A stretch of DNA of 63,715 bases, filler included, from Diploschistes diacapsis (GCA_023645945.1; 21 parts of 21 records of this genome joined end to end with filler, not necessarily neighbours in it); one strand, 5' to 3'. Positions 30,748 to 63,715 are shown, numbered from the whole stretch's first letter. Notes: generated by a model from the sequence alone, not told the origin. Translations and numbers: made by a program.

Positions 30748-30773
30748 GTATGTATGTATGTATGTATGTATGT
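30748..30773. repeat. (GTAT)n microsatellite
   Basis: gtatgtatgtatgtatgtatgtatgt. Confidence 0.9.
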
Positions 30774-40298: not shown

Positions 40299-40708
40299 AA
40301 AGACGTGTTAAGATGTCTGATATTTTTATTAATAAAATGGTTGTTGACGGGCTTACGAAGCTATTAAATTACTTAAAACACGACGCCTTTATTAAAAGAC
40401 TCGGTCTATTTTAAAAGATATTTAATTGGATTCTATAGATATATTAAACGATTCCGTTTGTGGGAGAATATTAAATAAATAAATAGAAAACATGGCTGAA
40501 AGTTCGATTAAGTTTTAGTCGGGGGTTTAGTTCTGCTGAATTCCGAGGTTTAGTTTAGTTGAACTTTTTGGGACTTTGATTAAACCGATCGGGAGTAATA
40601 TTGATAATAAGGTTTAGCGGATCCCGTAGGATATAAATGTTTGCGTAATAGGATATCTTCATAGGATAAGACTTCTAGACTTCAATATATCCATTACGTT
40701 GCCAAACA
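40299..40708 (+). mobile_element. Ty1/copia 3' end and family C LTR
   Basis: 'KMVVDGLTKLL' followed by a purine tract and an LTR ending TTGCCAAACA. Confidence 0.75.
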
Positions 40709-40996
40709 TTATTAACGTATATGCATAACGAGCGGACACTCATAGCGAACGGACATCCTTCTCGATTCGTACGAGTTGCAATTACATTTGCGTAATTAAT
40801 TCGTACGATAATTTATTATATTAATTATTAGTATCTTTTTTAGAAGTTATAGATTCTATTTCGTAAGTTCGCGTATTATGCCCGGATTGATTATATTTAT
40901 TATAACGTCGTACGCGTAATCCGATTTTCTTCGTACGATTTTTATTTTAGATATATTAGTCTTTTCTGTCCGAATTTCGATCTTTAAAGATTGTAA

Positions 40997-41483
40997 TAGG
41001 CTGGCCGTTTCGTGCCACGGACACTGGCACGGATACCGCAGCAAAAATTTTCTCGGCACGGACACTAACACGGATATTACACTGCAGTAAAAGCACGGAC
41101 ACGGGTACCGCAGCAAAACTTTTTAAAACACGGACACTAACACGGATATTACGCTTTAATAAAAGCACGGACACGTATATCGTTATAAAAAATTTTAAAA
41201 CATAGATACTGGCACGGATACTATAATTTATAATAATATTACCGATATACCGCAGTATAATTTTAAAAAAAAAATAAAAGCGTAAAAAATAAGCGTGATA
41301 ATTCTAAGATTATTAAAGTAAAAAAAATTATTTAAAAATGTTTCGATGAATACACGAACACGGATACCGTAATAAAAACATTTTCGGCACGGACACTAAC
41401 ACGGATATTATATTATATTAAAAGCACGGACACGGACACCGCAGTAAAAGTTTTTAAAACATAGACACTAACAATGACACTGC
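40997..41483 (+). mobile_element. hAT-like element end with (A/G)CACGG array
   Basis: TAGGCTGGCCGTTTCGTGCCACGG terminus followed by many (A/G)CACGGA(C/T)A units. Confidence 0.7.
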
Positions 41484-41583
41484 NNNNNNNNNNNNNNNNN
41501 NNNNNNNNNNNNNNNNNNNNNNNNNNNTTAATTAATTAANNNNNNNNNNNNNNNNNNNNNNNNNNNNNNNNNNNNNNNNNNNN

Positions 41584-42385
41584 ATAGTCTATTAAACCGA
41601 TATAAAATTTTAATTACGATAAAATTATTAAGAAGCTAAGTTCCGTAATTATCTTAAACTTATCCTTAAACGTAATTAATTTAAATCAGTTTACTTTCTA
41701 ATCTAATAATTTCACGGAAAGGAACGCCAGAAAAGACTTCTTTAAAGACAATATTAGATTAATGAAATCCAATCGAGCGAAAATTCTACATAAATAATCT
41801 ATATGTTCTTTAAACGTAGCTAAATAAACCACGATATTGTCCTAATAAACGCGATAAAAAGATCGCAGGTCTCTTAATAAATTATCTATTACACGTTACA
41901 CAAAAACAGACGTATTCTTATATCCCATAACCAGTACTTTGAATATCTCTTAACCCCGATGAAACACCACAGTTAATCTATATCGATATTCTTCTTTCGT
42001 CTAGAATTAATAAAAGAATTAAACAACATTTACCACCGATATGAAGGCCGATCCCTTGATGGCGTTTAGTATATCTATCTAATCTAATATCGGATAAATG
42101 TCTCGCTCGAATACCCGGTTCAAGATCCTGATATCAACAACGACACGACCCTTTTTAATATGGTCAGCCATTTTCCACACGACAAATACAAAAAAGCTGA
42201 ACGGCGTAAACTCTCTAATCCACTCCATTCGGCCTTTATCCTATAATTTATCGAAAGTCTCGTTAATTACGGCCTTATCTCGATTATTAATAAAATATAT
42301 CTTCGCCGTATTGACGCTATATTTCTCTCGTCAATCGTTAATTAATAGTATTTCTAGTTTTTTTAATATATTGATATTACCGATA
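41584..42385 (-). pseudogene. Ty3/gypsy reverse transcriptase remnant
   Basis: Minus strand has 'FVFVVWK...KGRVVVDIRILN' and 'YL(G/D)DNIVVY'-like (YxDD) segments. Similar pieces lie at 2582-2850 and 3580-3771. Confidence 0.65.
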
Positions 42386-43424
42386 TGTTATGATCTCTAT
42401 CTATACAAGGTATACACGAATATAGTCAAGGTAGGTTTGGTTTCTGTTAGAAGAGGAGTGTGGTAGGAAAAGAAGGTAGAGTAGTTATAGATCTTAGACT
42501 GTTTTTAAAAAGAAGGCTTTTTAAGAATAAAAATAACGAATATAAATTGATCCCGAGTAATAATTAAGGATATTTATAAAAATAAATACGTTCTTTTTTA
42601 CGAAAGTAAAATCGTGTTTATATATAATTAACTCGCTCGTCGTTTATTATAAATTTAGCGAGCGGTATTCTCGAGGTTCGTCGTTTACGAAAATAAACGC
42701 GATTATCGAGCGATAGCGAAACCTACTCGCCGCTTACGAACGTGAACGTGAATAATAAGTATATTACGNNNNNNNNNNNNNNNNNNNNNNNNNNNNNNNN
42801 NNNNNNNNNNNNTTAATTAATTAANNNNNNNNNNNNNNNNNNNNNNNNNNNNNNNNNNNNNNNNNNNNAGGTCCTGAGCCGAGCAGGTAGCCCTAAAGAA
42901 CCTTTTCGAATATAGAACGCCCCTACAGGAATACTACACAACCAGGGGCTGAGCCTAATCTGGAAGGATCACGTGTAGCTGCAATCTGTAGGCTGAATGG
43001 TTCAGATTCGAAAAGGTAAGGAAGGAACTATCTAGGTGGGAGTAAGGCACAAATAAATAGTCTGGGTGCCAGCCCTACTGCCCTACGGGGTTCAAACCTT
43101 GAACCCACAAACGATCATGATGTTCCACTTATTTAGGCTTACCCTAGGCCAGCGTAATAAGGTCCCGCGTTCTTTTAAAATAATATAATTTCTATCTTTG
43201 AATCCGCCTACCCTAAGGTTTTATAATTCAGATCCTAGGCTTTCGGATTTCTTCGATTTAAATCTTCTAAATAAGGCCAGCGTATTCGATCCCGCGTTCG
43301 TAACCGTTCCAACTATCGAGAAAACTTATCTTTAATAATCAAAAACGAAGTAATTCGAGTAAACTAACCCGTGCTTATAACCTATTTAGTAACGTAATAG
43401 ATATATTAAAATCTACAAATTTTA

Positions 43425-43973
43425 TTTTATAAAAATATCCTATTACGTAGACTTTTATATCTTACGGGATCCGTTAAGCCTTATTATTAATATTATTCCC
43501 GATCGGTCTAGTTATAGTCCGAGGAGATTTAGCTGAACTGAACCCCCGACTGGAACTCAGTCGAACTCCTAGCCATGCCTTCTGCCTGTCTGTTCAACAA
43601 AAATGGTTATTAACGGATTTACGAAGTTATTAAATTACTCGAAGCACGACGTCTTTATTAAAAGACTCGGTTTAATTTAAAAGATATTTAGTTGAATTAT
43701 ATAGACATGCCGGACGATTCCGCCTATAAAGGAATATTGAACAAATAGATAGAAGGCATAGTTGAAAGTTCGACTGAATTCTAGAAAAAGGTTTAATTTT
43801 GTTGAAGTCCGAGGTTCAGTTCAGCTGAATTTTCTGGAATTCCAATTAAACCGATTAAGGAATAGTGTAGGTAGTAGAGCTTAGCGTATCTCACGAGGAT
43901 AAAAGTCTATAAAGTAGGATAACCTCCTGGTGAAGACCTCTAGACTTCAATACATCCATTACGTTGCCAAACA
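43425..43973. mobile_element. Two inverted family C copia LTRs around an RNase H tail
   Basis: An LTR ending TGTTCAACA (~43599), then a plus-strand copia tail, PPT and an LTR ending GCCAAACA (43973). Confidence 0.65.
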
Positions 43974-44271
43974 AAAAATATATTATTCCGAATTATTTCG
44001 ATTTAATCGCGAATAACGAAATATCTATTATCGACGTGAATAAAATCAATATTNNNNNNNNNNNNNNNNNNNNNNNNNNNNNNNNNNNNNNNNNNNNTTA
44101 ATTAATTAANNNNNNNNNNNNNNNNNNNNNNNNNNNNNNNNNNNNNNNNNNNNTCTCTCTCTCTCTCTCTCTCTCTCTCCAGCACCACACAGGACAAACA
44201 ACAAGGTAGCACCCACCACCACCTCACGCCACGGCGGAAAACGCACGCACCTGAGAAAGACGGTCTCTCAC

Positions 44272-45149
44272 CTTGGAAATCCTCCCTCTCCCCCTCCCCG
44301 ACCCACCGCCCCAGCTTCTCCCGCGCAAACGCCTCGAAGTCCCACTCCCCGCTCTCCAGCCGCTGCGCGCCGGCCGTCCACACGTACGTCTCTGCATCCA
44401 CCCCGCCGTCGTTGTCGTCGTCGTCGTTCTTCTTCTTCTTCTTCTCACCCTCCGCCTCCGCACCGCCAGTGGAGGAGGAGGAGGAGGCTGAGGCTGGCAG
44501 CGGAAAGGCCGTGACGCGGCGCCTCTCGTACTCGTCGCCCTCGAAGACGTCGAGCCGGAACAGGTCGTGCGCCGCGAGGCCCGAGACCAGCGTGCCGCGG
44601 ACCGAGCCCGACGCGCCCTCCGAAACCCCCTCCCCCCTCCTCCCTCTCGCGCCGCAGTCCGCCGGCGCCGCCGGACCTTCTGCCCCGTCGTTGCGCTGGG
44701 TGGCCGTAGTCGTAGTTGTAGCGGTAGCGGCAGTGGTGGTGGTAGCTGTGGTCGCTGCTGCGGCAACGAGCGCCGGGTAGTCGGCGTGCCGCACCTTGTG
44801 CCGCGCGTAGCCGTGCAGCACGGCGGGCCGGATGGTCAGGCGCGCCTGCTGCCAGGGGTCCGGGGCCGTGGTGCCGTAGAGCACGCGGTGCAGGACTTGG
44901 CGCGACATCTTGGGGTGCAAGTCAGGCGGAAGCCGGTGGGAGGAGAACCAGGGGCGGGAGAGCGGAAGGCAAGTGCCGGAAGCGGTGCGAGAGTGAGGAT
45001 GGGGTGGGGGGTTTTATGGTGGGAACTTACGAGGGTGCCTGCCTCGCCCCGTCAGCTGCGCGGCCCCAATTGCTAGACGGGAGCTGACGGTGGTGCGGGG
45101 GAATACCGTAGAAGAAGGCGGCGCGGTCGCCGGCTGTGGGGGAGGCCAT
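44272..45149 (-). CDS. Gamma-glutamylcyclotransferase/AIG2-like protein, 3' end off contig; exons 45149-45107, 45038-45031, 44908-44272
   Basis: Splicing gives FFYGTLM, PAVLHGYARHKVRHADYPAL, RLDVFEGDEYER and AETYVW...WDFEAF. The donor at 44271 runs into a (CT)n contig end. Confidence 0.85.
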
Positions 45150-45937
45150 GGGATCGGGGCCGATAGGGAGGCCGTTTTTTTTTACGCAATGGTCTTTGAT
45201 GGCGTGTTGGATGGTCGAGCGTGAGATGAGAGGAGGGCTTTGGTTTGCTTCTTCTCGGCCCGGCTGCGAGCCTTGGGGGGCTACTATATAAGATAACTCC
45301 CGGATTAAGGGTACGCGGAATCGTATTCGAAGTGGGAAAAAGCAAGATAAAGGAGAGGCTTTAAAGACCTCGAGTAGGTTGGTTGGTGGGGGGTTGCACC
45401 CCAAATAGCCCAGTTTTCTGCATCCCACACCCCTTGCGTCTATATTGCGTACATTCGTAATTAGTCTTGCTCTTATCTACGGGTTTTATCAGAGCCCATA
45501 AACACTCTAAACACGCTATTTAGTCCCTCTCTTCGCTCAGGAGAAACTCAGAGGAAACAAAACATAGTCATATAAGCTCCAGCGTCGTTGAATTTTTTTA
45601 GTCTGTGGAAAAATATCCAGTAGATGCACCAAAGCATCGGACATCAAAAGATGGTGTGTGGGCAATGTGTCTACATCGTTGTCGTCATCTTCATCGTCGT
45701 CGTCGTCGTCGTCGTCGTCGAGATATAGTGGGTTGGATAGCGATAGGAAGCCATGTGTAATGCCTAGGCCTGAAGCATACAACGTGCACATCAACCCTGC
45801 TAAGTGCACAGAAAAGTCCGGTGTAGATTCTTTCTAGTAAAATCGATTGACGCATCGCTCGCCTAAAGGAAGCAAGGCTCACGGAAATTCATATAGGTGG
45901 CGAATCCTAATCGTTCTCGCAATACTCGCTGCCATCC

Positions 45938-48010
45938 TTACGTTCGTTCAGAAGTCAGGTACAGCGGACCAGGGCTTGTTGTGAAGAAACCACAAGCCTC
46001 GCTAAACATAAGTTCGCCCGGTGCAAAATCAATATCGAATCTTCTCAGTATGAGCGCCGCGGCAATGCGGATCTCCATAATACTTAGATTCTTACCGACA
46101 CAGGATGCTTTGCCTGTTAAAACCGGTCAATGAATCTAGATTGGACCATTTTTGCGACCATATGTGTGCATATATGGTACATAAGGGAGGTTTTTGGAGT
46201 GCTTACCCTCGCTCCAAGGTACGAAAGCGGATTTGTCTAGTGTTAACTCTGGGCTAGTGGAGAAACGCTCTGGGATCCATTCTAGAGCTTTGACGAAATT
46301 GCGCTCGTCTGTTATCCATTTAGCTAGACTGTTTCTCCTCGTGCATAAGGCATGCATGAAGGAAGAGCTCACCTCGCATCAGACTCTATTGAGGCACCAA
46401 AACGGTAGTGCCTTGTGGAATGTACGTGCCGTTGATGGTAGCTCCTCCCTTGGGTACCAGTCGTAGTCCAGCAGAAGGGACATGTGGATTCAATCGCAGT
46501 GTCTCGTAGATGCAAGCCGTCAAATGCTCGAGTTTCTGGAGCATCTTGTAATCATATAAATTAACGGATGCTAGTTCCTTGCGGATGCGAGCGAGATGCT
46601 CGGGTTTGTGAATAAGGTAATACATTATGTTGGAAAGAACTTGACGCACGGGATCACTGCTCAGAAGTCAGTATGCTCTATACATGCTTCGGCATCTGAA
46701 TTCAGAGTCAAGTGCTTACCTGCCAGCGATGATAACCAGCACGAAGTCTCCTAGTATATAGTTCCAGTTCTTCTCAATCCCGCCGTGCTCCAGGGCATCG
46801 GCAATAACACATCCGACAACATCGGTACGGTCTTTTTCGATTTCCTACAATCATCTAAGTTAATAGTGTATGTGAACCAGTCTCATTCCAGTCTTACCGT
46901 GATATTTCGGTGCAATTCATTGCTAGCCCAATCCATAAACATGCGGTAGTATTTCATTTTCTCGATATATGGAATGCCCATGAGTAGGTGCTTAACCCAG
47001 GGCGCGGCTCCCAGCGGACCGAGTCTTTTGTGCGCGAGATAGTAAATTTCGAGAATCGTATGTCGTCGGCCTCTTGAAAAGTTGTTTAAACGAAGTGTTA
47101 GACCAAATCGACCCATAAGGTCGAAAGTAAAGTACTCGAGCCAAGCCGTTATATCAAGGGATTCGTTTCCTATGCCTCAGTAATTGCTCTACAAGTCCGT
47201 TCGCCTCTTCATAGATGACCGACTCAGCCCTCTCGAGCGCTATATAATAAAAAGTTAGGAGCCGTTCACAGTCGGTTTTGATGGAACGGAAGCTGGAAGC
47301 TTTACCCTTTATGTTAAACGCACGATCCCATACTCTTCGGCGGTGGGCATGGACCTTTGGGTCGCGTACCGAATCAAGCGAGATCATTGGATGTAGCACG
47401 TCATAATAAGCCGCTTTTGTATAGACCGAGTCTATTCCATGTAACGCATGATAGGCTTCTGGTCCATAGAGTGTCACTTCACTCGGACCTAAGATACTCT
47501 AGTCAGCTTGATGTGCCCCATGAGGAGCGATATATGCGCTTTTTGATCTATATTTTGAATGGTCCCATAGCATCCGATATCGCAGTTCACGCGTCAAAAA
47601 AGAACCTTATGCTTACCGGTGCGAACCACATCGCCATACTTTTCATGCAATTCGTCAAGGAAGACACAATTCTGCACACGTGCCATACGCCAAGCGTGTG
47701 TCAACTTCGTTAAACGCATAGAAAGTGGCCCTGGGATATGCTTCAAGGGGGATAGAAAGAATCTGTATACGAGAACACTCGAGAATAAAGCCGCTGTAAA
47801 GGTAATGCCGATGGCAGCACTTTCTCTGACGGCCTGCCTGCCTGTCTCAATTTCAAATGTAGACTTTATTAAGGGGATAACAATGCAGGCAATAAGATAT
47901 AAACGACCCAATTTAGCAGCTGCCAGATCCCGTTCTCCATGGACAAAATAAGTCCAGTGGCAAATGAAGCCAGCTAGAGCTGCAAGTGATAGTTGAATAT
48001 GGAAATCCAT
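45938..48010 (-). pseudogene. Cytochrome P450 (7 exons) with a frameshift and a nonsense codon
   Basis: N-terminal TM helices, PLKHIPGP, YGDVVRTGPSEV, I-helix AGSDP, ETLR, PERF and heme motif WSEGKASCVG. Extra base at ~47167 and in-frame TAG at 46386-46388. Confidence 0.85.
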
Positions 48011-48446
48011 TGCTGGAAAGGCTCTGTCTAAGAATTGCTTGCAAACCGAGTTTAAAGAACGAAAGAGAGAAGTTTTGTATTAGAGCGATGGACTACCTGC
48101 AAGATGAAATAGTCAGCTGACATGTAGGAGCTTTTTGCAAGCGGGCACAGAGAACTCAGCACCAATTGGATTATACCTTGGGCTATTTCTTGCTTTTTCT
48201 GGAATGATCAGCCTGTCTGCGCCAGGTCTGTGGTCTTAAAACGAGATCCTGCTTGTGGTTGTATGCGTTGATAGAAAGCCTCGCTATTTGCAAGCCGCTT
48301 TAAGGCCTGAAGGGGAAGGATATAGAAGTCGACTGGTGCCAACCGCTTATGCGGCCCTACGCTTTGAAACAACCCACTCCAGACATAAGTTTGGACGTTG
48401 AACCCACCTGATAGCAGCGCTCTAGAGAATAAAAAATCTTTGCACA

Positions 48447-49450
48447 ATGGTGCTGACCGTGGACTATGTCTTTACTCGCGAATATCTCGACAATAACCGG
48501 TACGAATGCTACGCCCATCCATCTAGTGAGTTAACTGACCAAGTGCCGTTCACGTACAGAATTAATTTGCAACATTGTCTTTGGACCGAGCTCTTTGGAT
48601 ATCTTATGCACCCAAAGATTCCAACCACAGGTCAGGACATGAGAATCGCAGATGTCGGTACTGGCACAGGGTAAGCAAGTAGCATCCTACCTAGAGCCAT
48701 ATCTCTCTCATTATCAAGCAGTATATGGCTTACGGCGCTGGGAGCTCAACTTCCTGCATCGGTCCACTTGGATGGTCTAGACATCTCATTCGAGGCAATG
48801 CCACCATCTCCTTGGCTTCCCAGCAACGTGACTCCCCGATACTTCGATATTATAGCTGAGGTTCCAAAGGAGTTCGTTCACTGTTACGACATTGTTCATG
48901 TTCGAAACTTCGCCTTCGTCTTGCAGGACAATGACATACATTCTGTCCTTGAGAATCTCATCAAGCTATTAAGTAGGGTTGCTCGATCAAACAGCCAGGA
49001 TATGACCGTCAGATGTGCTAACGATGGTTATCAATTCAGAGCCAGGGGGCTACCTGCAGTGGGCCGAGCCTGACGTTACGTCGTTTCGGGTTGAGAAAAC
49101 CGAGCCAGAGAACGATGCTAATGGCTTGAGCGACTTGATGAAAATCTCTCAGAGGCAAGATGCGAGGCTGAGACCAACCTGGGTGCCTAAACTACCAGCA
49201 TTGTTCGCCGATTGCAAGCTGGAAGGCGTTGAACATGATGTCCGAGACGCGCCACCGTATCTTGCTTTGGCCATGCATGAGTGTAACCTTCCAATTCACG
49301 GATTGATCGCGCAAAAGACCGGAAACGAAGTGGTAGCTGAAGAGCTTGGCCGCACTCATGCCAAGAATTGCAAGAGAAACAAGAATGGGCTCGTGCTGGG
49401 CTTTTACCAGATGGGTGGTGATTGGCAAAAAACCCGCCAGGGTCGCCTAA
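48447..49450 (+). pseudogene. Class I SAM-dependent methyltransferase (4 exons) with a late frameshift
   Basis: IADVGTGTGIW, LDGLDIS, YDIVHVR, EPGGYLQW. Removing one T at ~49346 restores a typical end ...WAFTRWVVIGKKPARVA*. Confidence 0.8.
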
Positions 49451-50329
49451 TGCTAAACTAAGCGCGCCGCTGCCTGTATCATCCATGTTCATGAAAATTA
49501 GGCCATGAGAGGCACGCTACTGCGAATATAGAATGAACATGCACAGTCCAAGCTGTAAAGAGCCGATTGTGAGACACATCGATGATGCCATTGATGACCC
49601 GAGGTGCTAATGCAAAGTGAGAGGCACAGAGACAATCATCCACGTCTTTTTTGAAAAATCGCTTGCAGGCTTTTGAGGCAAAACATCCGGATCGATATTT
49701 GCTTATACCCCTTCAACCAATCATACAATTTCTGCGCGCTTAGTTCGTGGCTGGTTTAGGAATTGGGTTGCATATCCCAACTATTAGATCGTCCCATCTC
49801 GTTCGGCGCGTTAGTCATTGTCTCTATCCCACGAAAACTAAGTTGGGGGGGCCTACTAACAGTTGGGACACAGCTGGAGACTGTAGACTGTAGTCACCCC
49901 TCCTGCCCTGGAAACAAACTGTAGCTCTCTGGGCCGAGCTTCAAGTTCACAAGTAGTGCAACGGGGAGAGGAAGCACATGCATTGCGGTGTGTTCATGGA
50001 TCCATCCCCCTACTTTCTGTCCTTGCTCAGCTGATCTGGCAATACTCTAGAAAAGGGCAAATGATTTTCGTGTAAGCGCCGGGGAGGGTAGGAAGGCATA
50101 TCAGATTCGCAAACATGGGGATGCCGCAGGCTAACAGCTTGCATAGCTTGACTGCTGCTACGTTGACTGGACTACGGGCCCTAGGTACGGTTCCTAAAAT
50201 TCCACGAAATGTTTTACGCTTTTGATTGGCTCCAATGAATTTTCAACGGTGGAAGCGAAGCCATGAATTAATGACTGGATCTCTATAATCTTAGGGAACG
50301 AGCTGTTCCTGCCATTGCCTTGATTTTTC

Positions 50330-51106
50330 CTAGATAGTTGCAATGCCGTTGATCACCTCGATCACCTCCTGAGTCGCGGTCAGGTTGGGACAGTGACCCG
50401 TGTTCAGCTCCACTGTCTGCACCTTTTGCCCGTCTGCCCGCATCTGTGCTACCATTGACTTCTGATAATCTAGCGGCACGGTCATATCCTGGCTGGCGTG
50501 GATGTATGTAACGGGAATCTCACGCCAGGCGCTGTGGGTAATGTCTTGGTACATGCATTTTCCATTCCAGCGCACAAGTGTGGATAGATAATCCTTGGAC
50601 TCGGCCTCGTCATAATCTGCTCCGATCAGTATCATCTTCGGATCCCGGGCAAGACAGCTATCATCTTCGGCAAAGTCGAAGGCTATGGCCACGAGACTCT
50701 CATGATCGAATTCTCGGACCTTGCCTATCATGGAGCCGCCCTCGGGCATGGCAAAAGCGCACATGTAGATATGGTGAGTAACGCCTCCAGTCCGCTGTCC
50801 GAGACGTTAGATACGTTCGTCTAGACCCAGGCCTTTGAGGGTATTGGTGCCGACTTGGCCACCGTAGGAATGCACGACGGCAACGACATGGTGGCCGCCA
50901 TCGACGAGACTCTCCACATAGCTTCGGATGAGCTCCGTATCCGTAGCCAGATCATTATTCGGGGGACGAGCCTCGTTCATCGACGGCAAGCGAGGGAGAT
51001 GAACCTCGTAGCTGGCAGCCTTGAGAGGTTTCGTTAATTTGACGTAGGTCTTCGGCGTGTGCCAGCCGCCATGGATAATGACAATTGTGGGCTTGGTGGC
51101 AGCCAT
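50330..51106 (-). pseudogene. Alpha/beta hydrolase (Abhydrolase_6-like) with an in-frame TAA
   Basis: IVIIHGGWH, nucleophile elbow VHSYGG, QDMTVP, TGHCP. TAA at 50807-50809 splits two in-frame ORFs. Confidence 0.85.
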
Positions 51107-51739
51107 TCGTCTGTTGAGCTTAAGATACTTGGATAGAATATTTAAGAAGCTCATACCTCAGAAAAGAGAGAGACTTGAGATGGAAAGCTTGACATGAAGA
51201 TAAGACAGATATATATAGTTGCTAGCGCCAATGCAGCAAAAGCCTTGATTTGATATGCTAGAAAAGCAAAGTGGTAGTTACCGTAGAATTATGGCAAAGC
51301 AGTCCACGCACATTACCCCCATAGAAGAATCAAATAAGTGGTGCTTTAGCCTTGTCATGATAACTGAATTCTAGGCAATTATCGCTAATCATTCATAACG
51401 AAAGCACAAGCCGTCATAATACAGAATTGCATCTACGGTAGTGCCAAATCTGAAGAACATAGCTACTGACATCTGCACATGCAATTTTGTGGTATAGATC
51501 CAGCTTTACTAGCCTCGCGACTGGCTAATTTATTTATCAATGTTTGTATTGCTATTCCGAAGGTTGCTTTGCTTTGCCAGACCCGAGGCCATGATGTTCA
51601 GTAGACTTTACAGTCCATTCTCAACAGCTGATCCGGTCTTCGCCTGATAACTCACTCCGAACTCCGTTCGGACACAGACTGGGCCTAACGACGCCATATC
51701 ATGATTTTCACTGCCATCGAGTGTTGATTCAACGCTAGT

Positions 51740-52897
51740 TTATATACCTTGCGCATTTCGAATCCTACAAGGCTTGTATTTCCGTCCTGAGCGAAGCAGA
51801 TTGCGCTTTGAACCTTGTATTCCGAGCGTGCTTCTGTTGCTTTTGGGGCCATCGCCCCAGTATTTGAATAGACTTGGAAGCACCGGCAAACAGCAGCAGA
51901 TGACTGACATGTTCATCTCGACGAGAGTCCTAATCCCAGCAATCGTAAATGTATCTGCAGATTCAGCTTGTTTAACAAGCGACCAAAACTGTTTGAATAT
52001 AGCTAGCTCAAAACTTCAGGAGCCAATATTCGAGAAAATTGACAGTGCTTACAAGTAACGTCTGTCACATCCACGGAGAGGAGCTCGAAGATTCGCACTA
52101 TGCTAGTAATGCAAACGCTGTACGGTTAGCAGCAACTCTGTCGCAGATACAGAGGGACTTACAAGCCACCAAGCATGAAAAGCAAAGAAACCAAGAGCTT
52201 TCATTGTGTGGACAGATGGAGTTTCCATACTCGAGCTTGAGGTAAGCAAAGAATGATCAGGTCAAGCAGGATATTTGCAATTCCCATGCTAAGCCAAAAA
52301 GCTTTGTCATTGATGCTTGTGGAAGGAAGCCAGACCTCCCACTGAGCCTGCACCGGGCTATACCGGAAGATAAGACCAAACTCTGCAGCAAGAAAATATC
52401 CCAATAGAAGGCCGCCAACTACACGTGTCCAAAGACGAAGCGATCGGTCAATCGTAAAGATACGACAGTAGAAAAGCACGACCGACGCTTTCGATAGTAT
52501 AATGCTTGCGTTGTATATTACATTATTTGCGAGAGCGATCTGCAAGACCCCCTCAATTAGCCGAAACTTTGAAGGGCCTGGATATATGGCCGGTAAAACG
52601 ACTCGCCTGAAGATAAGTCTTAAGCTGTAGCAGACTGTATGTTGTGATATGGTAGCCAGCTCCTCCGAGAGTAGCTACCAAGGCTGTTGTTATCGGACAG
52701 CCATAGGCAAATAGAAGAGCGCCGAGCGCAGCAAAGTCATCCGAATATAGAAATAGAGTCAATCTCAGTGATATGAAACGTAGAGCAACACAAATAGTCG
52801 ACAGGAAGGTCATCATCCCGGCCAATCCGAGAAAGACAACATAACCGTCGCTAATGCGATTAGGATGTAAAGGTGATGCTTGTGCTGCAGTAGCCAT
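51740..52897 (-). pseudogene. PTH11-like fungal rhodopsin-domain membrane protein (no CFEM), nonsense-disrupted
   Basis: VALRF...DD, SKASVVLFYCRIF, NILLDLIILCLP...WKLHLS, FVCITSIVR and EMNMSVICCCLP. In-frame TGA at 52201-52203. The first intron is GC-AG. The 3' end is approximate. Confidence 0.8.
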
Positions 52898-53210
52898 GAC
52901 CAAGTGTTTGAGATAGCGGCTTTGCGTGAAAGTCAAAACTTGTGATGAGGAACTTGCGTGCCAGAATGAAATTGAAATTGGTATAGCAGCCAAATTTCGA
53001 GCGACATACGTAAGAGGTATCCTTTCAGTAGGTAAGAAAAACGAGATATGACCATAGATACTCTTATAACGAGTGGCCGCGGTATAAGACCCAAGTCTAC
53101 TAGCCGTCGTTTCCTTTCCTCTTATCCACGGGCATGGCCTGACGGACTGATAGTCATGGGTCAGCCCCAGTAATTAGTCCGCCTCATTTAAACGCCGTGA
53201 AGCTGCCGAG

Positions 53211-53775
53211 CTATATTCCGAGGCTGGTTAATGCATGGCTGACGGCAGAGGCGAGAGCTTCCACTTCATTTCCCCATGAAGGCACAGTGTGCCCACCACC
53301 GTGCACGACCTCAACGCACCTCGCGCGATCACACATCTGCACCAATTGGGCACTTTGTCTGGGATAGTCCACATCATCCAAGCTCCAGGCATGGATGGTC
53401 GGAATGCGAATCGTATCGCTAACGTCCTCGGCCTGGAATAACCGCATGACACCCTTGTCAAGCTCATGCCAATCACAGGGTAGCGTTGCACACAAGAAAA
53501 TGCCTCACTCCTCGCTCTTGGTTCTGAAGCAGGAGGGTTGCCGCGAGGGCAGCGCCAAGGGAAAAGCCCAGAATGGCATCGAAGGGGCCGTTCCCCGCCA
53601 GGTATTTAGCAAGATCGTCCAGGGCTTTGGCCACGTTTTGGGGGGTGCCATTGTGGTAGGAATAGCAAATCTGATGTTTGCCAAATACCTCCTTGATTCC
53701 GGCGGCGGATGGGCCAGGGATATTCGCCGTCTAGGAAGTCGTATTCGAACCCATCCCCTAAGGCATAGCGTAAGA
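53211..53775 (-). pseudogene. FSH1/LovG-like serine hydrolase (trans-thioesterase candidate), frameshifted
   Basis: LRYALGDGFEYDFLDG, GPFDAILGFSLGA (Ser), IPTIHAWSLDD (Asp) and HGGGHTVP (His). Frameshifts near 53710 and 53503. The usual N-terminal LCLHG exon was not found. Confidence 0.8.
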
Positions 53776-55005
53776 ATTAGGATTAGGATTAGTGGTGCCA
53801 AGACCGAGCGATGACATACCTCGCTATCAATATCTTCATCTTCATCTTCATTTTCGACGTCGGGAGCCAACTGCGGTGATCCATCATGACAGAGTCTATT
53901 TTGCGGCGTAAATGGCTCTCAGGCCCACATAAAATGGGTAGTAACGCCTTCTCAATCTATGTTGGGCGATACTGTAGCATTCATTGCGTACATCTCACGC
54001 GCCCTCCAAGAAGGTCATGCGATATGAAATGACTATTAACCTTGCTAATCCGGCGTATGGTCTTGCATGCTTAGGCTATTTGTTGATGTCTCGCACCGTC
54101 TCAGAACAACATCTATTCCAAACAGGTCCCTCAACACTCAGGACAATATGTGGTAATGCGGCACACAAGTTCATGTCGATCGCTCTCCTTCCGCTCTTGA
54201 AATCTATGGCAAGAGTTCGTTCTAATCTGATCAAGTAGATGATAATCCACCGCTCAGCCCGTATCCAGGCAGCCCACTCACTCTACCGGCCAATGATCCC
54301 CCCCAGTCAGACTCTCGACACTCCGATATGGAAGCACTATTGGAGCCTGGAACTCGCCGCAGCAGGTACCTTGACCCACAAAGCCCAGCATGGCGCCCCT
54401 AAGCTCTCTAGAAACGCTTTTCCCCTTCATTGTGTGATTCGGGTCGAGTGCTAGCTCTCTATGCATCTTTTTCATTGCTACCGCCTTCCTGTGTTCTTGA
54501 TCTTTGTTTGAGGCACCGCAATGCCTAGCAACTTTGTCACCTGTGGCTACGTTCTCTTCAAGTTCGGATGTCACCCTCTGCTCCTGCAACGACGCCGTTC
54601 CCCCCTACTTCTCCGAAGATTTCTCGGGCTTGTTCATTTAAGCCTATCATATGCATAATCACCAAGGGATGTACCGGTATAATCATCATTTGTTGGCGTT
54701 GTAAAAGTATTGGGCATAGACTCTGGGATTGCGCACTTCTCTTGACCCGTACACCAGGTTCTGCTGCAGACATTTTGAAACCGAGGTTGTTAGTCCTTGT
54801 ATCTCATCCATAAAGTGCATACTCTGTTTCTGCGAAAGCCTTTTGTAGATATACCAGCATTACCTGACATAAGGAACTCACACAAGTTGGGGTGGTATCT
54901 CTACACCTTTTGTCACTCTCAGGAATCACGATCCGTACAAAGAGCCTTTTCCGGTCAAGAGAACCCGCTGGATCCTGCTCACATCGCACTCGGAAAATAG
55001 CAATC

Positions 55006-58000
55006 ATGAGGTTTAATACATACGTTGATAGGAATGGTTCGGAAATACCTCTTGCCATTGTTGGTGTCGCTTTCGAATTCCCTCAAGAGGCCGTCACATT
55101 AGATTCGTTTTGGAAAATGATTCACGACGGAAGATCAGCAACTACGAATTTACCCAAGGACAGATTGAATGTTGATACTTTTTTTCATCCGGATAGCTCC
55201 CGCCCTAGCGCGTTGAGTTTTATCGTAAAATATAACCACGAGCTCCAGTGGCTCATCAGTTCAGATACCATTACGAGGGGGCAATTTTGTTCGGGAAAAT
55301 ATCGGTGCTTTCGACCCACCGTTCTTTTCTATCGCGCCCGCGGAAGCAGCATGTATGGATCCGCAACATCGACGAATGCTCGAGACCGCTTACCATGCTC
55401 TCGACGACTGTAAGTAACTTCGGCTGCCATATTGGGCTATGAGATATCAAGCCCATTAACGTCTATTAGCGGGCATTTCACTTGCCCAATGTTCTGGGTC
55501 GGACACATCTGTATTTACGGGCTGCTTCACGAATGATTATCTTAGCATCGTGCAGCAGGACTTCGAGACCGAGCATAAGCACGCAGCAATGGGGATTGCG
55601 CTATCTATGTTAGTAAACCTACTAAGCTGGTTTTTCAATTTCAAAGGGACATCCATGAATCTGGATTCAGCATGCTCAAGTAGTTTGATCGCATTACACC
55701 TTGCCTGTCAGGAACTCCGCGCAGGTACATCATCTATGGTAATCACGGGAACTATCGTCTTCAGCCCCTTCAGAATGCTTTGGCTAACAAGATAATCTAG
55801 GCACTCGTTGGGGGAGCCAACCTCGTTTACCATCCCGATTTCATGAAGATGATGGCAAATTTCAATTTCCTATCTCCAGATAGCAGGTGCTGGACGTTTG
55901 ATCAACGAGCAAACGGCTACTCTCGTGGCGAAGGAAGTGCAGTTTTAGTTGTAAGACGCCTCACAGATGCCTTGAGAGATAGCCATACAATTAGGGCCAT
56001 CATTCGAAATACCGGCTCCAATCAGGATGGCAGAACACCAGGAATAACACAGCCGAGCCAAGAAGCCCAGACTGCCCTTATAAAACGGACCTATGAGCAC
56101 GCAAATATTGATATGGCACCTACAAGGTTCTTTGAAGCTCACGGGACCGGCACCAAAATTGGCGATCCTACCGAAGCAAAAGCTATTGGGCTCGCCTTTC
56201 ATGACCATCGAGCTGAGCATGATCCGCTTTACATTGGCGCTGTTAAGGCTAGTATAGGACATCTTGAAGGCTGCAGTGGCATTGCTGGGGTGGTCAAGGC
56301 ACTTCTCGTGCTCGAGAAAGGCGTGATACCCTCAATTGCCGGCCTGGAAATACTTAATAGGCAGATAGAAGAGGACAAACTGAATTTGCATGTAAGTCGC
56401 CAATGCAGAAAAGAAGCCATCCACCATTAACAACAAATAGTTCCCTCGTAAGACTATACCCTGGCCAGAATGCAAGATTCGTCGGGCCTGCGTAAGTAAT
56501 CTGTTGTGACCAATGCCTTCTATGGCTAAGAATCACTAGGTCAACTCCTTCGGGTTTGGAGGTACTAATGCCGTTGCCATTCTCGATGACGCGAGGGGTT
56601 ACCTAGAGCTTCATGGTTTGCAGGGATACCATCGCACGCAGGGAGTTCCGCGAGCTCACAGTTCCACACCAATGGATGACACCTCTCATCCCCATGATCT
56701 GGCGCTGCCAGATCCGACGGCTGTCTCGAAAGCAACGTCTGATAGTTCCTCAGCATTTGAATCCCTATTCAAGCCGGCGAAGCTGCTGATCTGGTCAGCT
56801 TTCGACAAAGAGAGCACGCTGCAACTCTCTTATGCACTATATCGTTATATTCATGCTTGTGCCGATGAGATTGATGATCTGGCATACCCCTTAGCTGTTC
56901 GGAGAACCCATTTCGCTTGGAGATGTTTCACAGTGATGAATTGCGGCGAGAAATCGATGCAGATGCCGAGCCTCCAAAGAGAACCTATCAAGATTGCGGA
57001 TAACAGTGGACTAGTCTTCGTCTTTACCGGGCAAGGAGCTCAATACCTGGGCATGGGTCGACAGCTCCTTGCTTTTTCCGAGTTCCGGAGAAGTATGGCA
57101 ACTTCGGAATCCTGCATGAAACGGCTTGGTTGTTCATGGTCTATATACGAAGCCATTGACTCCTGGAATGAAGAATTGCCTATTGAAAGGCCCGAAATTA
57201 GTCAGCCTTTGACAACCTGTCTTCAATTGGCCCTTGTGGACCTACTAGAGAGCTTCGGGATCAAGCCAAAAGCTGTACTAGGTCACTCCTCCGGGGAAAT
57301 TGCCGCGGCCTACGCCGCCGGTGGTTTATCTCGGTTTTCGGCTATCAAGGTAGCTTATTTTCGAGGCAAGCTTTCATCCAGCATTGTAAGCAACCAGGAT
57401 AACGTGTCGATGATGGCAGTAGGCTTATCATATGATAATGTTCTGCCATATCTCAGCCGTATCCACGACCTTGAAGGAGTCCTTAACGTCTCCGTTGGCT
57501 GTGTCAATAGTCCTTTTAGTATTACTCTTACCGGAACTACAACGCAGCTCGAAAGACTTGCGGAGTGGCTTACAGAGGACTCGATTTTTGTACGCATGCT
57601 TCGCATTCCTATTGCCTATCATTCGTCTTTTATGCAAGCAATTGCTGGCCATTACCTGACCGCCATGGGAATACTTGAGAAAGGCTCCATACCAAGCTCT
57701 GTTGTTATGATCTCTTCTGTCACAGGCGATATCGTAACCACCGATGACTTAACCCGTGCCGACTATTGGGTGCGTAATTTGACCTCGACCGTTGAGTTCG
57801 CGGCTGCATTTACGAAACTTCTTGAGCAGTCGAGCAAAATGCCACGTAAGCAACTCGGAAAAGCCTCGCTACAGAACCTAAAGGTCACACACATCCTGGA
57901 GATTGGGCCGCATGGCGCCCTTCAGGGGCCAATTCACGATATTTTGAGGGCTTTCCCAGGCCCTGCTAAGCCGACTTATCTACCTTCTCTCATCCGCAAC

Positions 58001-61000
58001 CAAGATGCATCTGCTGCGCTTTTGGAAGCACTCGGAGCCCTCTATTGTGCCGGATATCCCGTTGACCTCTTGAGCGTCAATGATTTAGGCGATTCTGTCA
58101 GACCAACGTCAGTGGACATGCCCAAGTATCGTTTAAACACAACAAATTGTATTGGATAGAGATTCGTTTAAGCAGAAATTTTCGCTTTCGAGAAGTCGGT
58201 AGGCATGATCTGCTCGGAACCCGCAGTCTAGATTGGAACCCGCAAATGGCGCAATGGCGCAATGTCATGAGATTGAACCATATCCCATGGCTAGAACACC
58301 ACAAAGTAACGGCGAGATCATATTTCCAGCAGCGGGCATGGTAGTCATGGCCATGGACGCTGTTAAGCAATTGAACAACAATATAGCGAGCCCGCCTGAG
58401 ATTCAGATTAAAGATGTCACATTTACACATCCCATCAGATTTCCACAAGGAACCGATAAGGTTGAGACCCAACTCAATCTGTCCACGGGGTTAGGTACCG
58501 AATTTGCGACATCATGGTCCTACTTCCGCCTGTTTGTCATAGACAATGGGAGCTACCTAGAATGTTGCACTGGGTATATTCAAGGCGTCACGAATCGGCA
58601 GCAGCCAAACGGTGATATGTCGTATCCTACCTTAGACGGCAAACCAGTTTCAGACTGGAAAATTAGCATTGCGGACGTTTGTCAAGGGTCAGAACAGGAT
58701 CCTTATAGCATGTCCACGGGATCTCGGGTGCAGTATGGACTAACCTTTCAGAACCTTGAGAACATGCGGCTGAGCGGTCAAGGTGAAGCCGTTGCTTACC
58801 TCAAGACGCAGCAATGGAAAGAGGGCATGGTAGAAACATTCACACAACACTATGCCGTTCATCCTTCCGTCCTTGACGCATTGGCGCAATTAATCCCACC
58901 GGCGCTTGCGGAGAGAAATGGCAGGATGCCAACTATGCTTCCTACCCGAGTCTCGACAATTTGGATTGACTGCGTCGGTATGGAAGCCCTTTGGGAAGAC
59001 AAGTTTTTTGTCGCTGCCAGATGCAGATCACGAGACTACCGAGGAGCCTCAGCTAGTATTTTAGCAACTTCTGGCAGTCAAAACAGACCACTGCTCTGCC
59101 TTGAGGGTCTCAAAACAACCTTCATAAGTAGCACCGAGGATCTAGATACCAACGAAGCGTTACCTCGCAAGTTATGCACCAGAATAATCCAGAAGCCTGA
59201 TATAGATATGATGAGCCACGAGCAGATATTCCTGGAATGCACCCGGGATAGACCGATAGAGGCATTGGACGAAGTGTCAAAGTTTCGATCACTGATGTTG
59301 ATCATCATGGGGTTTATACAAGAGGCACTCGATTTTGTTGAGGGTCATCCTTTCTTGTCGCTCGAGAAACACTTAATGAATTATCTGGATTGGATGACAT
59401 ATCAAAAGCATCGACTAACCATTGGAGGATTTCCGGTTACTTTATCCGCCGTGCAAGATTTGCTCAAGGACCCTACAGCCCGCATGCAACTTGCTAACCA
59501 AGTCGAGAAATTCTGGAAGCGAAGGATTTCTCTTCGTGCATATCGGTCGAAACCTAATCAATATACTTCGCCATGAGGCGGATCCGCTTGACCTGATGTT
59601 CTGAAACGGTCTGGTCAATTACTACTATGAGCGAAAGCTTGCAAATGATTATCACGCATATCCTGCATCCATGTTCATCGATCTTCTCGCCTTCAAGAAC
59701 CCATCTTTGAATATTCTTGAAATCGGCGCCGGCACCGGAGGACAGACAGCAAGGCTACTAGAAAAGCTGTCCTTTGACGGTGTAAAGAAATGGGCTTGCT
59801 ACGATTATACTGATATATCTCCGGGATTCTTCGAACAAGCGCGAATGAATTTTCAAGCCTTCGCGGATAAGATGAGCTTCTGTGTGTGCGACATCTCCAA
59901 CGATCCAAAAGTGCAGTCGTTTGAACTAGGCAGCTATGATCTTATCGTCGCTTCACATGTTCTTCATGCAACGAATAATCTCCACAAGCCGCTGCGCAAT
60001 GGTCGCAAGCTTCTTAAGCCTTCCGGGAAATTGCTGCTCTTTGAAACCACTGAACCGAATGCTCTCCATGTCAGTTTCGCTTTTGGCCTTTTTAAAGGGC
60101 TGGTGGACTCCTTTGGAGCATGAGTCTCGTTGCAAACTGAGTCTCTGCATCAGAGTCGCCGAATGGGACCATCGACTGAAAGAGGCTGGCTTTTCAGGCG
60201 TGGACGTGGAAATCCCTGGTCAGCAAGACGTAGAATGCCAATATAGCAGTATCATGATCGCTAGTGCTATTGACGCCAGCGTAAGCCCTAATCATCCTCG
60301 AGAAATTGCTCTAGTAAGGGACGCAGAAGTGGAAGGACAGTGCGTAATAGCACAATCTTTGCAGAATTTGCTTTTGACGCAAGACATTGCATGCACATCA
60401 TACGCATTAGAACATCTTGTTGAAGCTGATATCCCTGGTACGACCATCATCATATTTCTCATAGAAGTGGATGCAGCATTCCTGGCCGAAATTTCGGCCC
60501 CAGACTACGCATGTCTAAAGGCAGTCAATATAAGGTTCAAGAACACTATCTGGGTGACGAGACCTTTTTTTAATGAATTCGAACCTCGACATCATCTCGC
60601 AGACGGTTTCGGTCGCACTCTCGCCTCAGGGGACTCTGCAGGTAGGTTTGTGACTCTTGAATTGGATAGCTCGAGACCCGACCCAGGGCAAGCGGTATCT
60701 ATGATCTTTAAGATGATCAGCACAATAGCCTCGTCATCAATAGAGAATTTGGAGAATAACTATGTCGTCAAAGATGGCATGCTTCACACATGCCGAATCT
60801 CAAAGAACGACGCCATGGACAAGATAGTCGCCCAGAGCACTCGATCACATTGTCGATAGGAACTTCAGCTTGCGCCGAGCACTGAGATTGCTCTTACCCT
60901 TGGTTCACCTGGGCACCTTAAGACGCTCGGGTGGGTATCTGACGAACCAGAGCCAAGAGACTCCTCCATTGGTGATGAAGATGTCATTGTTGAGGTTAAA

Positions 61001-63172
61001 GCATTTGGCTTAACTGCAAGAGACTATTATATTGCCAGTGGGAAAGTTAACGAGACAGGATTAGGAACAGAGTGTGCCGGAATCATTAAATCAGCCGGCC
61101 GTTGCTCGGGTTTCCAAAGTGGCGACCGAGTATGTCTTATTGGACTTTCCATGAGTCGCTCAGTTGCATGCTCGAAGAGTAGCGCAGCCTTTGGTATCCC
61201 TCCAGACATGAGCTTCGCAGAAGCTGCTTCACTGCCGACAGCACTTTGGCTTTCTTATCATGCCCTCATTGAAATAGAACGACTTCAAGAGGATGAGACT
61301 ATTCTTATTCTCCATGGATCCAGCAGCGTCAGTCAGATTGCCGTTCAAATGGCAAGAACCTTGGGTGCGAAAGTACTAGTGACAGCAAGCTCGCTGGTTC
61401 AAAGCGACTTTATATGCCAAGAGGTAGGGGTATCGAAAACTGAGATATTCTTGAGCGAAGATTGCGCCATGATCAGCAAGATTCTTCAAGCCACACAGGG
61501 CCACGGTGTCGATGTACTTTTTGGATCATTGAAACACGGAACTGACGCAGAACTATCAAGATGTCTCGCACCCTTTGGACGCCTAATCGACAAGAACCTG
61601 AAGCACAAAGCCGAGACGAACGTGAAGCCGTTAGGAGAGACGCCGGCGAATGTATTATTTACGCGCATTAACAGGGCGGATCTTCTACTTAAAAAGCCAG
61701 CTAGAGCCCATACAACCTTTCGGAATGCAATGAAGATGGGTTTAGATGCAAAGCTCAAACCGCTGCGTCCTCTGCACTTATTCCAGGCAAACGAGATTGA
61801 GAAAGCTTTCCGCCATTTCCAGAATGCCGGAGCATTGGGAAAAAGAATAATAGAGCTTATGTTCTGGAATGACCGTTTCTGTATGTTTTCCTAGATCCTT
61901 CCCTTTGAACCTTCTAACAAACTACTCTTCTAGGCAATAACCGAAACGAAGCCAAAATACGCCTTCTTGAGCGAGGCAACTTACATCATCGCGGGCGGCC
62001 TAGGTGGCCATGGAAGAGGCTTTGCACGATGGATGGTCAGTCGTGGTGCATGAAATTTGGTCCTCCTCTCCCGCTCCGGTATCAAGAGTGAAGTAGCAAA
62101 GACTCTCGTAAAAGAGTTAGAATTGCAGGGTGTTTGCGTTATGACACCCAAAGTCGACATTGGTAACCTTGATGATTTAATCAACGTACTAGACATGCTC
62201 AAAGAACGCATGCCACCAATACGGGGCTTGTATACAAGCCACCGTTGCTCTGAGAGTACGCATAATCATCCTAGAAATATTCAAAGCAACATGTGGCTAA
62301 CGAAATCATAGGATAACCTATTCGAGAACATGACCTACGAAGATTGGTCCCTCAGTACTCACTTTAAAGTCGCTGGCTCTTGGAACCTTCATGCCGCTCT
62401 CCCTTTAAGCCTCGATTTCTTCGTTCTTCTTTCATCGGTCAACTGTATTTTCGGAGGTAGAGCACAGGCGAACTACGCAGCAGGCAACACCTTCGAAGAT
62501 TCTCTCGCGCGCTACCGCATCGCACGTGGCCAGAAGGCAGTCTCTATAGATCTAGGCCTCATGGTGGGCGAAGGCGTTGTCGCCGAAAGCGAGTATCTGC
62601 TGACTTCGATGCGACGACGTATTGGGCATCTCATGGATATAAAGCAGGAAGAGCTCATTGCACTACTTGATCATTATTGTGATCCGGACCTGCCACTTTT
62701 TTCGGATGAGGAAGCGCAGGTACTTGTTGGTATTGAGATGCCTTCTGCTGTCCGCGCTAAGGGGATTGATTTGCATCACTCGATGTATCGGCCCCTTTTT
62801 CGTCACTTGTTTCAAACAGCGCCCGAGAAAGCAATCGCCGATCGTCCAAGTTCAGATGCCAGTGTCGTCGATCGAGCTGCGATGCTCAGACGAGCTACGT
62901 CTCAAGAAGAAGCTGCGGCTCTGGTTACGGGATGGTTTGCTAAGAAGGTAGCACAGATACTGGGATTGTCGGAGCAAGACATCGACCCGAGCAAGCCCAT
63001 GCACACATATGGCATCGACTCGCTAGTTGCGATGGACCTAAAGAACTGGATTGCGAGGGACATCGGCGCCGATGTCGAGATCTTTATGCTGCTAGGCAAT
63101 ATGCCGTTGGAGGCTGTTGGCGCGGCCGTGACTGTACAGAGCCGGTTCTGGCAAGAGGGGCCGGCACTTTGA
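55006..63172 (+). pseudogene. Highly reducing iterative type I PKS (KS-AT-DH-cMT-ER-KR-ACP), multiply disrupted
   Basis: KS: DSACSSSL, EAHGTGT, GHLEG, VNSFGFGGTN. AT: GHSSGE, AYHS. DH: HHKVNGEIIFP, HPSVLD. cMT: ILEIGAGTGG. KR: GGLGGHG, ANYAAGN. ACP: GIDSL. Six frameshifts, three in-frame stops and one broken splice donor. Confidence 0.92.
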
Positions 63173-63715
63173 AGGTTGAGAGCGCGCAGGCGCCGTCGAA
63201 GCCAATCAGAAAGCCAGACGAATGTATTTCTTTTTTTTTTTTCCTTTTTTCTTTTTTCGTGATACATGATAGTAGCTGTAAGCGCTCAAACACTCTGCAA
63301 GGCAGTTTGTCTTTGTCACGCTTCAAGGATAGAGAGTAAAGACTTACACTTCGTCCCTCTCGACGTTATCTCACTTGCACTAGGTTTAGTGTGTGCATTG
63401 GGGGCCTTAAACGAATAAGGATAGACGTGAAAGGGAGTATCAGAAACAGGTCTAGAATAGCTTCGAGCTTCGAACAGCTTTGTGTAACGTTTATTACTAC
63501 CAGTGTGCGAGCCACGCATCTTCCATCTATGTACGCACCCGGCGGCGGTGGCGGCGGGATGAGCCTGTCCTCTACCTAGAACGTTTGTTTGTATACATAA
63601 GCTCTCAAGCACTCCCGACGACGCAAAGTCCTCCACAGAAAATCAGACCAATAGCACGGGCGTTTATTATGGCACAAAGTCGCTTTTTTGTGAACCCCCC
63701 CCCCCCTTCAAACAC

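Follow-up and report, generated by a model that had tools for sequence, protein, structure and literature searches.

The window analysed here, a stretch of 63,715 bases from Diploschistes diacapsis (GCA_023645945.1), holds between positions 45,938 and 63,172 six genes of a reduced-polyketide pathway: a cytochrome P450, a small S-adenosylmethionine (SAM)-dependent methyltransferase (MT), an alpha/beta hydrolase, a PTH11-like membrane protein, an FSH1/LovG-type hydrolase and a reducing polyketide synthase (PKS). Disabling lesions were located in every one of them, and the locus is very probably a real pseudogenised reduced-polyketide cluster, structurally complete, in an ascomycete that comes from a lichen sample and is probably the fungus forming that lichen. 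The window consists of 21 separate contigs strung together and divided by spacers of the form N44-TTAATTAATTAA-N44 (e.g., 1192-1291), and the adjacency of its blocks is therefore biologically meaningless. The six genes lie entirely on the second of its two large contigs, 44154-63715 (19,562 bp, guanine-plus-cytosine (GC) fraction 0.49), while the first, 11605-31192 (19,588 bp, GC 0.51), served as a control.

Gene families were assigned by a Pfam run on the 109 stop-to-stop open reading frames (ORFs) of contig 44154-63715, which returned, on the minus strand, pieces of p450 (45941-46667), Abhydrolase_6 (50333-51157, two abutting ORFs), Fung_rhodopsin (51743-52674) and FSH1 (53214-53730, two ORFs in different frames), and on the plus strand the PKS domains (54868-63169). 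Lesions were mapped with a protein-to-genome dynamic-programming aligner that admits GT/GC-AG introns in three phases and frameshifts of 1-2 nt and penalises stops; those of the alpha/beta hydrolase and of the PTH11-like gene were mapped by Pfam read-through, with an X placed at the stop. Pfam, homologue alignments and read-through together place the six families where the preliminary description of this DNA had put them. Sequencing runs were compared as assembled contigs (Logan), with matches taken at ≥90% likeness. They comprised X1, a lichen metagenome (all sampled words) and probably the source run of the window, X2 (0.45 of words) and X3, a rock metagenome (0.28).

The PKS pseudogene (55006-63172, plus strand) is of the highly reducing type, with Pfam domains in the order KS-AT-DH-cMT-ER-KR-ACP and seven introns, and it is collinear with highly reducing PKSs (HR-PKSs) of 2,417-2,596 aa. 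Three homologues picked among the 120 matches listed, P0001, P0007 (Xanthoria) and P0009 (Aspergillus), were aligned to it. Identity to P0001 was 61.5% over 2,571 matched codons, with strong alignment on either side of each break, and the three homologues agree on seven short introns, the boundaries of the first being uncertain (55208-55259 with a GC donor, or 55210-55264), and on six frameshifts and three in-frame stops, which leave the gene with no continuous spliced reading frame. The nine lesions, each called in 3/3 alignments, are a -1 frameshift at 58130-58131, where a Pro codon is one base short; a second -1 frameshift at 58306-58310, inside the DH His motif HxxxGxxxxP; a +1 frameshift in an AAA run at 59508-59511; a TGA at 59602-59604, opposite T or R; a +1 frameshift in a T5 run at 60091, within the cMT domain; a TAG at 60857-60859, where same-frame ORFs abut; a +1 frameshift at 61856-61862, just upstream of the intron at 61881-61933 and the least certain of the series; and, in the KR domain, a TGA at 62051-62053, opposite R or G, and a +1 frameshift at 62228. 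Catalytic motifs, as PKS motifs are commonly defined, were found at 12/12 sites (KS Cys/His/His, AT Ser, DH His, cMT motif I, KR Tyr and ACP Ser), with the DH motif split by its -1 frameshift and the ER motif showing one change. The ER nucleotide-binding motif is usually of the GGVG type; at 61304-61340 (plus strand) it reads GSSSVS in the window and, in P0001 as the closest homologue, GSSSVG. Even where the genes of this PKS group are intact, their ER may thus be atypical or inactive.

The FSH1/LovG-type serine hydrolase pseudogene (53211-53851, minus strand) was recognised by FSH1 (PF03959) matches on two ORFs in different frames. Nine homologues were aligned among the 150 matches listed, with identities of 43-53%; they are full-length, covering FSH1 profile positions 4-209, and the nucleophile motif GFSLG (GxSxG) is retained in the alignments. 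A search of the homologue P0145, taken as a proxy for the gene, against the PDB gave no match at E ≤ 0.001. All nine alignments call a +1 frameshift in a CCC run at 53711-53713 and a second frameshift at 53493-53502. The third lesion lies at 53821-53827, where X2 has 33 extra letters and a repeat of the 7 nt, whose translation by hand, ..LILCLHGIGT.., agrees with the KILCLHGIGTNSD of the homologues; the window therefore carries a deletion of 40 nt, with a 7-nt direct repeat at its flanks, by which the N-terminal ..CLHGIGT.. motif was removed. Consistently, the N-terminal ..LHG.. strand-loop motif of the family was not found in the window copy. Ahead of the LRYALGD exon the window has no AG acceptor for the first intron; a further lesion may therefore lie in the 5' part of the gene, and it was excluded from the lesion count. 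A short tandem repeat resembling (CTAATC)3 occurs at 53775-53795 (minus strand), where the first intron or the second exon would be expected.

The cytochrome P450 pseudogene (45938-48010, minus strand) runs from an ATG at 48010 to a TAA at 45938-45940 through six introns, and the p450 family was matched on its exon ORFs. P450s are marked by the ExxR motif and a heme-binding Cys loop, and both are visible in the alignment, as ETLR and ..KASCVGKN.., respectively. Five homologues of the 11 matches were aligned, at 53-60% identity, and all agreed on the six introns, one of them (P0121) being a shortened gene model that introduced one artificial long intron. Two lesions were called in 5/5 alignments: a TAG at 46386-46388, opposite a Tyr conserved in all five homologues, and one extra base (+1) at 47165-47177. 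The MT pseudogene (48447-49450, plus strand), with introns at 48671-48721 and 48973-49039, gave no Pfam family in any of its window ORFs at E ≤ 5, and the same threshold returned nothing useful for the further ORFs without a family. Its homologues, 55-63% identical, carry Methyltransf_23/25/12, the 63%-identical P0132 matching Methyltransf_23/25/12/31, and motif I (GxGxG) reads DVGTGTG in the window translation. A +1 frameshift at 49342-49354, about 35 codons upstream of the stop, was called in 5/5 homologue alignments (of seven matches). An in-frame TGA at 48672, earlier taken for a lesion of this gene, was rejected as such: it is intronic, lying inside the canonical 51-nt first intron (donor GTAAGC).

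The alpha/beta hydrolase pseudogene (50330-51106, minus strand) is intronless and carries an HSYGG nucleophile motif, with Abhydrolase_6 matched on two abutting ORFs of the same frame. They are separated by a TAA at 50807-50809, between the nucleophile and the C-terminal part, whose flanks leave no room for an intron; with an X at the stop, Abhydrolase_6 matched in one stretch (profile 1-216) at 90.9 bits, while the two halves taken singly had scored 50.0 and 35.9. The single weak match in the PDB (9dk4, E 0.002) hints at a resemblance to hydroxynitrile-lyase/esterase-type hydrolases. The PTH11-like membrane protein pseudogene (51740-52897, minus strand; Fung_rhodopsin, PF20684) has four exons, and its three introns, of 67 nt with a GC donor, ~45 nt and ~98 nt, were placed by hand. 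A TGA at 52201-52203 lies inside exon 2, and its replacement with X gave one Fung_rhodopsin stretch (profile 59-184) at 110.1 bits as compared to 96.1 (cut-off 27). Intron 1 of this gene (52540-52606, minus strand) begins with GCGAGT instead of a GT donor; either this is one of the rare introns of the GC-AG type or the splice site has mutated, and since GC-AG introns exist it was excluded from the lesion count.

Alignment and Pfam read-through thus give 17 disabling lesions in total, 11 frameshifting indels and six nonsense codons, distributed as nine in the PKS, three in the FSH1 gene, two in the P450 and one each in the MT, the alpha/beta hydrolase and the PTH11-like gene. The claim of the preliminary description that every cluster gene is disrupted is hence borne out for 6/6 genes, and so is its observation that introns and most catalytic motifs are intact: canonical signals (GT donor, CTAAC-like branch site, YAG acceptor) were present in 14/15 introns called by the aligner, the PKS motifs in 12/12 sites, and start and stop codons are kept in all six genes. 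Domain order and the FSH1 hydrolase, P450 and MT neighbours agree with the standard reduced-polyketide architecture that it had recognised, in a state that would be non-functional in every gene, and with disabling lesions in all six no product is expected to be made.

Well-kept starts, stops, splice signals and catalytic motifs would also be seen if the genes were still expressed by recoding, i.e., through an alternative genetic code, stop read-through, programmed frameshifting or A-to-I editing of the mRNA; editing of premature stops is indeed known in some filamentous ascomycetes. Such an explanation has next to no chance of being correct. All three stop codons are used, and they stand opposite Y, R, T, E, A or G in the homologues, not W; the frameshifts run in both directions and are accompanied by a 40-nt deletion; the housekeeping genes of the same assembly are read in the standard code with long ORFs, and relatives have plain unbroken sequence at several of the lesion sites.

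Inactivation by repeat-induced point mutation (RIP) was considered as well, because the assembly also contains AT-rich repeat contigs with RIP-like features and some of the stops (TGA opposite R) could have arisen via C>T. The dinucleotide indices of all six genes are, instead, of non-RIP type (GC 0.46-0.55, TpA/ApT 0.5-0.84, (CpA+TpG)/(ApC+GpT) 1.2-1.7), and the composite RIP index is negative in each of them (-0.4 to -1.2, vs. +0.4 to +0.65 in the AT-rich contigs), in agreement with the earlier view that the cluster DNA is not RIP-shifted. Moreover, 11 of the 17 lesions are indels, the transitions between the window and X2 are symmetric (C>T 92, G>A 75, T>C 76, A>G 67), and the P450 stop is a C>G transversion with respect to X2 and X3. 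The probability left to RIP is negligible.

The lesions might also be sequencing or assembly errors in a cluster that is alive in the organism, an explanation favoured by the location of several frameshifts in short homopolymers (AAA at 59508, T5 at 60091, CCC at 53711) and by the nature of the window, a patchwork of metagenome contigs. In X1 the region is represented by a single Logan contig of 19,532 nt, identical to the window and with a mean word depth of 101; no second X1 record matched the region at ≥90% likeness, and run X4, from the same study, had no contig matching it. With an identical, independently built contig at such depth and no other record, neither errors from low coverage nor another copy of nearly the same sequence are likely, and we take the lesions to be real. 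Six of them, besides, are base substitutions yielding all three stop codons and one is a 40-nt deletion, and non-synonymous changes are in excess. The control contig points in the same direction. Its genes, reported earlier as free of lesions, proved to have long unbroken exons (XRN 787, Uso1 619, isochorismatase 389, EMC1 807 and another ORF 714 codons), and both exon junctions checked (2/2) were canonical introns, one of them an in-frame 51-nt intron holding a stop; by our own estimate, it is very unlikely that four clean ORFs (8.8 kb) would be met at the cluster's density of ~1.3 lesions/kb. Error as the source of the lesions is accordingly highly improbable. The 714-codon uninterrupted ORF of this contig (27255-29396, plus strand), which lies beside XRN, Uso1, isochorismatase and EMC1, had no Pfam match at E ≤ 0.001.

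Somewhat less remote, and still improbable, is that the cluster is a decayed duplicate of an intact functional paralogue located elsewhere in the genome. Fungal clusters do duplicate, and the comparison was confined to contigs; on the other hand, only one source-run record fell on the contig at ≥90% likeness, and the related samples show one main allele per listed site, with lesions of their own.

These related samples allow the history of the decay to be followed in part. Between X2 and the window, 447 places with a substitution were listed, a divergence of about 2.3%. The unbroken state was found in X2 and/or X3 at six of the 17 lesions: at 46386 in the P450, where both runs have G, giving TAC (Tyr) in place of TAG; at 53711, where X2 has one base fewer, and at 53821/53827, in the FSH1 gene; and in the PKS at 59508 and 62228, where both X2 and X3 have one base fewer, and at 60091, where a loose end of X3 at 60092 is one base shorter and restores G-L-L-K-G in frame (hand comparison, depth ~3-4). 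A further two lesions are likely absent from X2, whose record 7 (57926-58719) takes in both 58130 and 58309 and exceeds the window by 2 nt, with two gaps, so that both -1 frameshifts of the PKS are likely filled in that lineage. Being unbroken in relatives, these lesions are derived in the window.

X2 also has disabling changes of its own. In the P450 a TAT has become TAG at 47897, and in the PKS there is an 8-nt deletion at 59430, around which the frame of the window matches the homologues on both sides; one X2 record is 1 nt shorter across 56857-57362, inside an open 539-codon ORF of the window. Two larger differences were also noted: some X2 contigs skip 544 nt of the PTH11-like gene (51977>52522, side 29) at a depth of 57.8 vs. 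29.3 for the unskipped form, and others replace 124 nt around the FSH1 nucleophile motif by 13 letters (53496>53621, depth 28). Both lie near the limits of reliability, and they may represent further null haplotypes in a mixed population.

Among the 40 differences listed between the window and X2, 32 fall in P450 codons, 22 being non-synonymous and 10 synonymous, which corresponds to an omega of ~0.7-0.9 for this subset of sites in one gene (P ≤ 0.023 if omega ≤ 0.3), and several X2 changes affect residues where the window matches the P450 homologue P0122. The P450 differences between the lineages are thus near neutral, with relaxed constraint. Taken with the null changes proper to X2, this places the loss of constraint at or before the split of the lineages, and the different disabling mutations in relatives make that loss at least as old as ~2% divergence. 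At least two lineages carry different null mutations, and each lineage appears to be decaying independently. The suggestion of the preliminary description that the pathway was recently abandoned consequently stands for a share of the lesions, six (probably eight) of the 17 being absent from samples ~2.3% divergent, and not for the onset of the decay, as indicated by the null changes of X2 and the near-neutral P450. Its other proposal, that the pathway could be repaired from this sequence, is feasible in principle, yet the 17 lesions are accompanied by an unquantified number of damaging missense changes, and intact orthologues offer a more sensible route.

X3, at its low depth, is free of each lesion of the window and of X2 that could be scored in it, and it may therefore still hold a working copy. 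The locus could accordingly be a functional polymorphism, in which three co-occurring lineages of one lichen-fungus species complex have acquired different null alleles independently, in a cluster type apparently common to lichen fungi and Xylariales, with X3 perhaps retaining function; we hold this to be possible, although on balance unlikely. Were it true, it would provide a natural allelic series through which lichens of different chemotype could be tied to a reduced polyketide that has so far been an orphan.

Several points weigh against the reading of the locus as a fully pseudogenised cluster and have to be set beside the evidence above. Contigs and not raw reads were compared, hence minor intact alleles may exist in the source sample, and a diverged functional paralogue (<90% identity) could still reside elsewhere in the genome. 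The lesions of the alpha/beta hydrolase and the PTH11-like gene come from Pfam read-through rather than from alignment to close homologues, and that of the PKS near 61862 could be an alternative 5' splice site skipping ~6 linker residues. Relatives were scored at eight of the 17 lesions, from the variant rows listed, X3 was covered at a depth of 2-7, and omega derives from part of the sites of a single gene. As for the occurrence of the cluster in other genomes, discussed below, synteny was read from locus tags and equal contig sizes rather than from coordinates, and at 80 metagenome loci with distant PKSs (28-44% identical) tblastn detected no syntenic neighbours, only scattered single matches for five ORFs. 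We regard decay of all six genes as the best account of the locus with these points included.

Next to the cluster, at the end of its contig, lies a GGACT/AIG2-like gene (44156-45300, minus strand), with GGACT matched by Pfam on a 286-codon open exon (44156-45013) and an FFYG exon upstream across a putative intron. ORF and Pfam inspection, made without comparison with homologues, revealed no obvious lesion in this gene, whose membership in the cluster is putative only. In the stretches 44154-44200 and 44500-44800 (minus strand) lie long low-complexity runs of this gene, poly-Thr/Ala and poly-Lys/Asp, and the terminal GA/CT-type (TCTC) microsatellite of the contig, which is probably the cause of the assembly break. 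In X3 the putative intron of the gene has 20 letters in place of 62 nt (45280>45343).

The remaining 19 contigs of the window (1-11504 and 31293-44053) measure 1,185-1,191 bp, are arranged in order of falling length and are AT-rich (GC 0.27-0.38). In the five that were tested, the dinucleotide indices are RIP-like (TpA/ApT 1.0-1.2, substrate index 0.4-0.75). Segments 70-98% identical recur in many of the 19, and they are therefore diverged copies of a few repeat families.

What the intact pathway produced can be outlined from knowledge of the families. On its own ACP the iterative HR-PKS would have assembled a reduced polyketide chain with methyl branches, whose release in trans would have fallen to the FSH1/LovG-type serine hydrolase. 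LovG and FSL2, in the biosynthesis of lovastatin and fusarielin respectively, are described as trans-acting releasing thioesterases (PMC6274466), and from this precedent and the adjacency of the two genes we infer that the hydrolase would free the ACP-bound polyketide from the partner PKS. Tailoring by oxidation, methylation and ester or lactone chemistry could then be attributed to the P450, the small SAM-dependent MT and the esterase-like alpha/beta hydrolase. The damage itself is made up of ordinary small mutations, and not of RIP, and it would have accumulated once selection on the pathway had been lost.

The 120 PKS matches listed include no close characterised protein. The best match of the PKS is a 2,596-aa protein without a name (~60% identity, 59-62%), and its identity to any named protein is at most ~54%, the names among the 120 matches listed being generic or similarity-style labels on proteins of other species ("lovastatin nonaketide synthase", "azaB"). 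No evident match to a characterised cluster emerged from the literature consulted, where the papers on fusarielin, rasfonin and fusapyrone did not fit, and a metagenome scan with a single PKS piece gave 42 pattern matches and no relatives. Homologues, in turn, appear to be clustered elsewhere. In the Teloschistaceae lichen Squamulea squamosa the P450 Q9213_005662, the closest named one, and a close PKS, Q9213_005665, both list a contig of length 56431, and equal contig sizes are listed for P450 and PKS in Xylariaceae sp. FL0255, Xylaria telfairii and X. intraflava, and for MT and PKS in Xylariomycetidae sp. FL0641. Such P450-PKS and MT-PKS pairs, in Squamulea squamosa and four Xylariales genomes, suggest that a homologous cluster type recurs in Squamulea and the Xylariales, i.e., that it is conserved, and its intact orthologues are hence the ones whose expression could reveal the product.

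Point mutation and gene loss are already documented as ways in which secondary-metabolite clusters decay, and the current understanding of such decay is not changed by the present case. What the locus adds is that small mutations can disable all six genes of a whole cluster and leave its structure in place, and that, given an internal control and independent samples, broken genes on a metagenome-derived fungal contig can be true pseudogenes and not assembly noise. In genome mining the locus should be counted as a dead cluster, although automatic tools may still call a PKS cluster there, and the null alleles that differ among related samples could be used as markers when populations or chemotypes of this lichen group are studied.

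Among known systems, those of lovastatin and fusarielin (LovB/LovF with LovG; FSL1 with FSL2) share with the cluster an iterative HR-PKS beside a separate FSH1-family hydrolase and a P450, and among solved structures LovB (7cpx) matches the PKS homologue P0001 best. The cluster differs in that it lacks a LovC-type trans-ER, a LovD-type acyltransferase and a C-terminal condensation domain, and in that all of its genes are broken. In Squamulea squamosa the P450 and the PKS carry locus tags three apart; the genes of the apparent Squamulea and Xylariales clusters are annotated as intact proteins, and those of the window are only 52-67% identical to them. With regard to the mode of loss, mutated and truncated PKS orthologues have been described in sister species of Ascochyta for ascochitine (PMC6763771), and correlated loss of the usnic-acid cluster in lichen fungi (PMC7643366). 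As in these cases, lineage-specific nonsense and frameshift mutations abolished a PKS pathway of which close relatives keep other alleles; unlike them, six of six genes were hit, by 17 lesions, in a cluster that is structurally complete and for which at least two lineages bear different null mutations.

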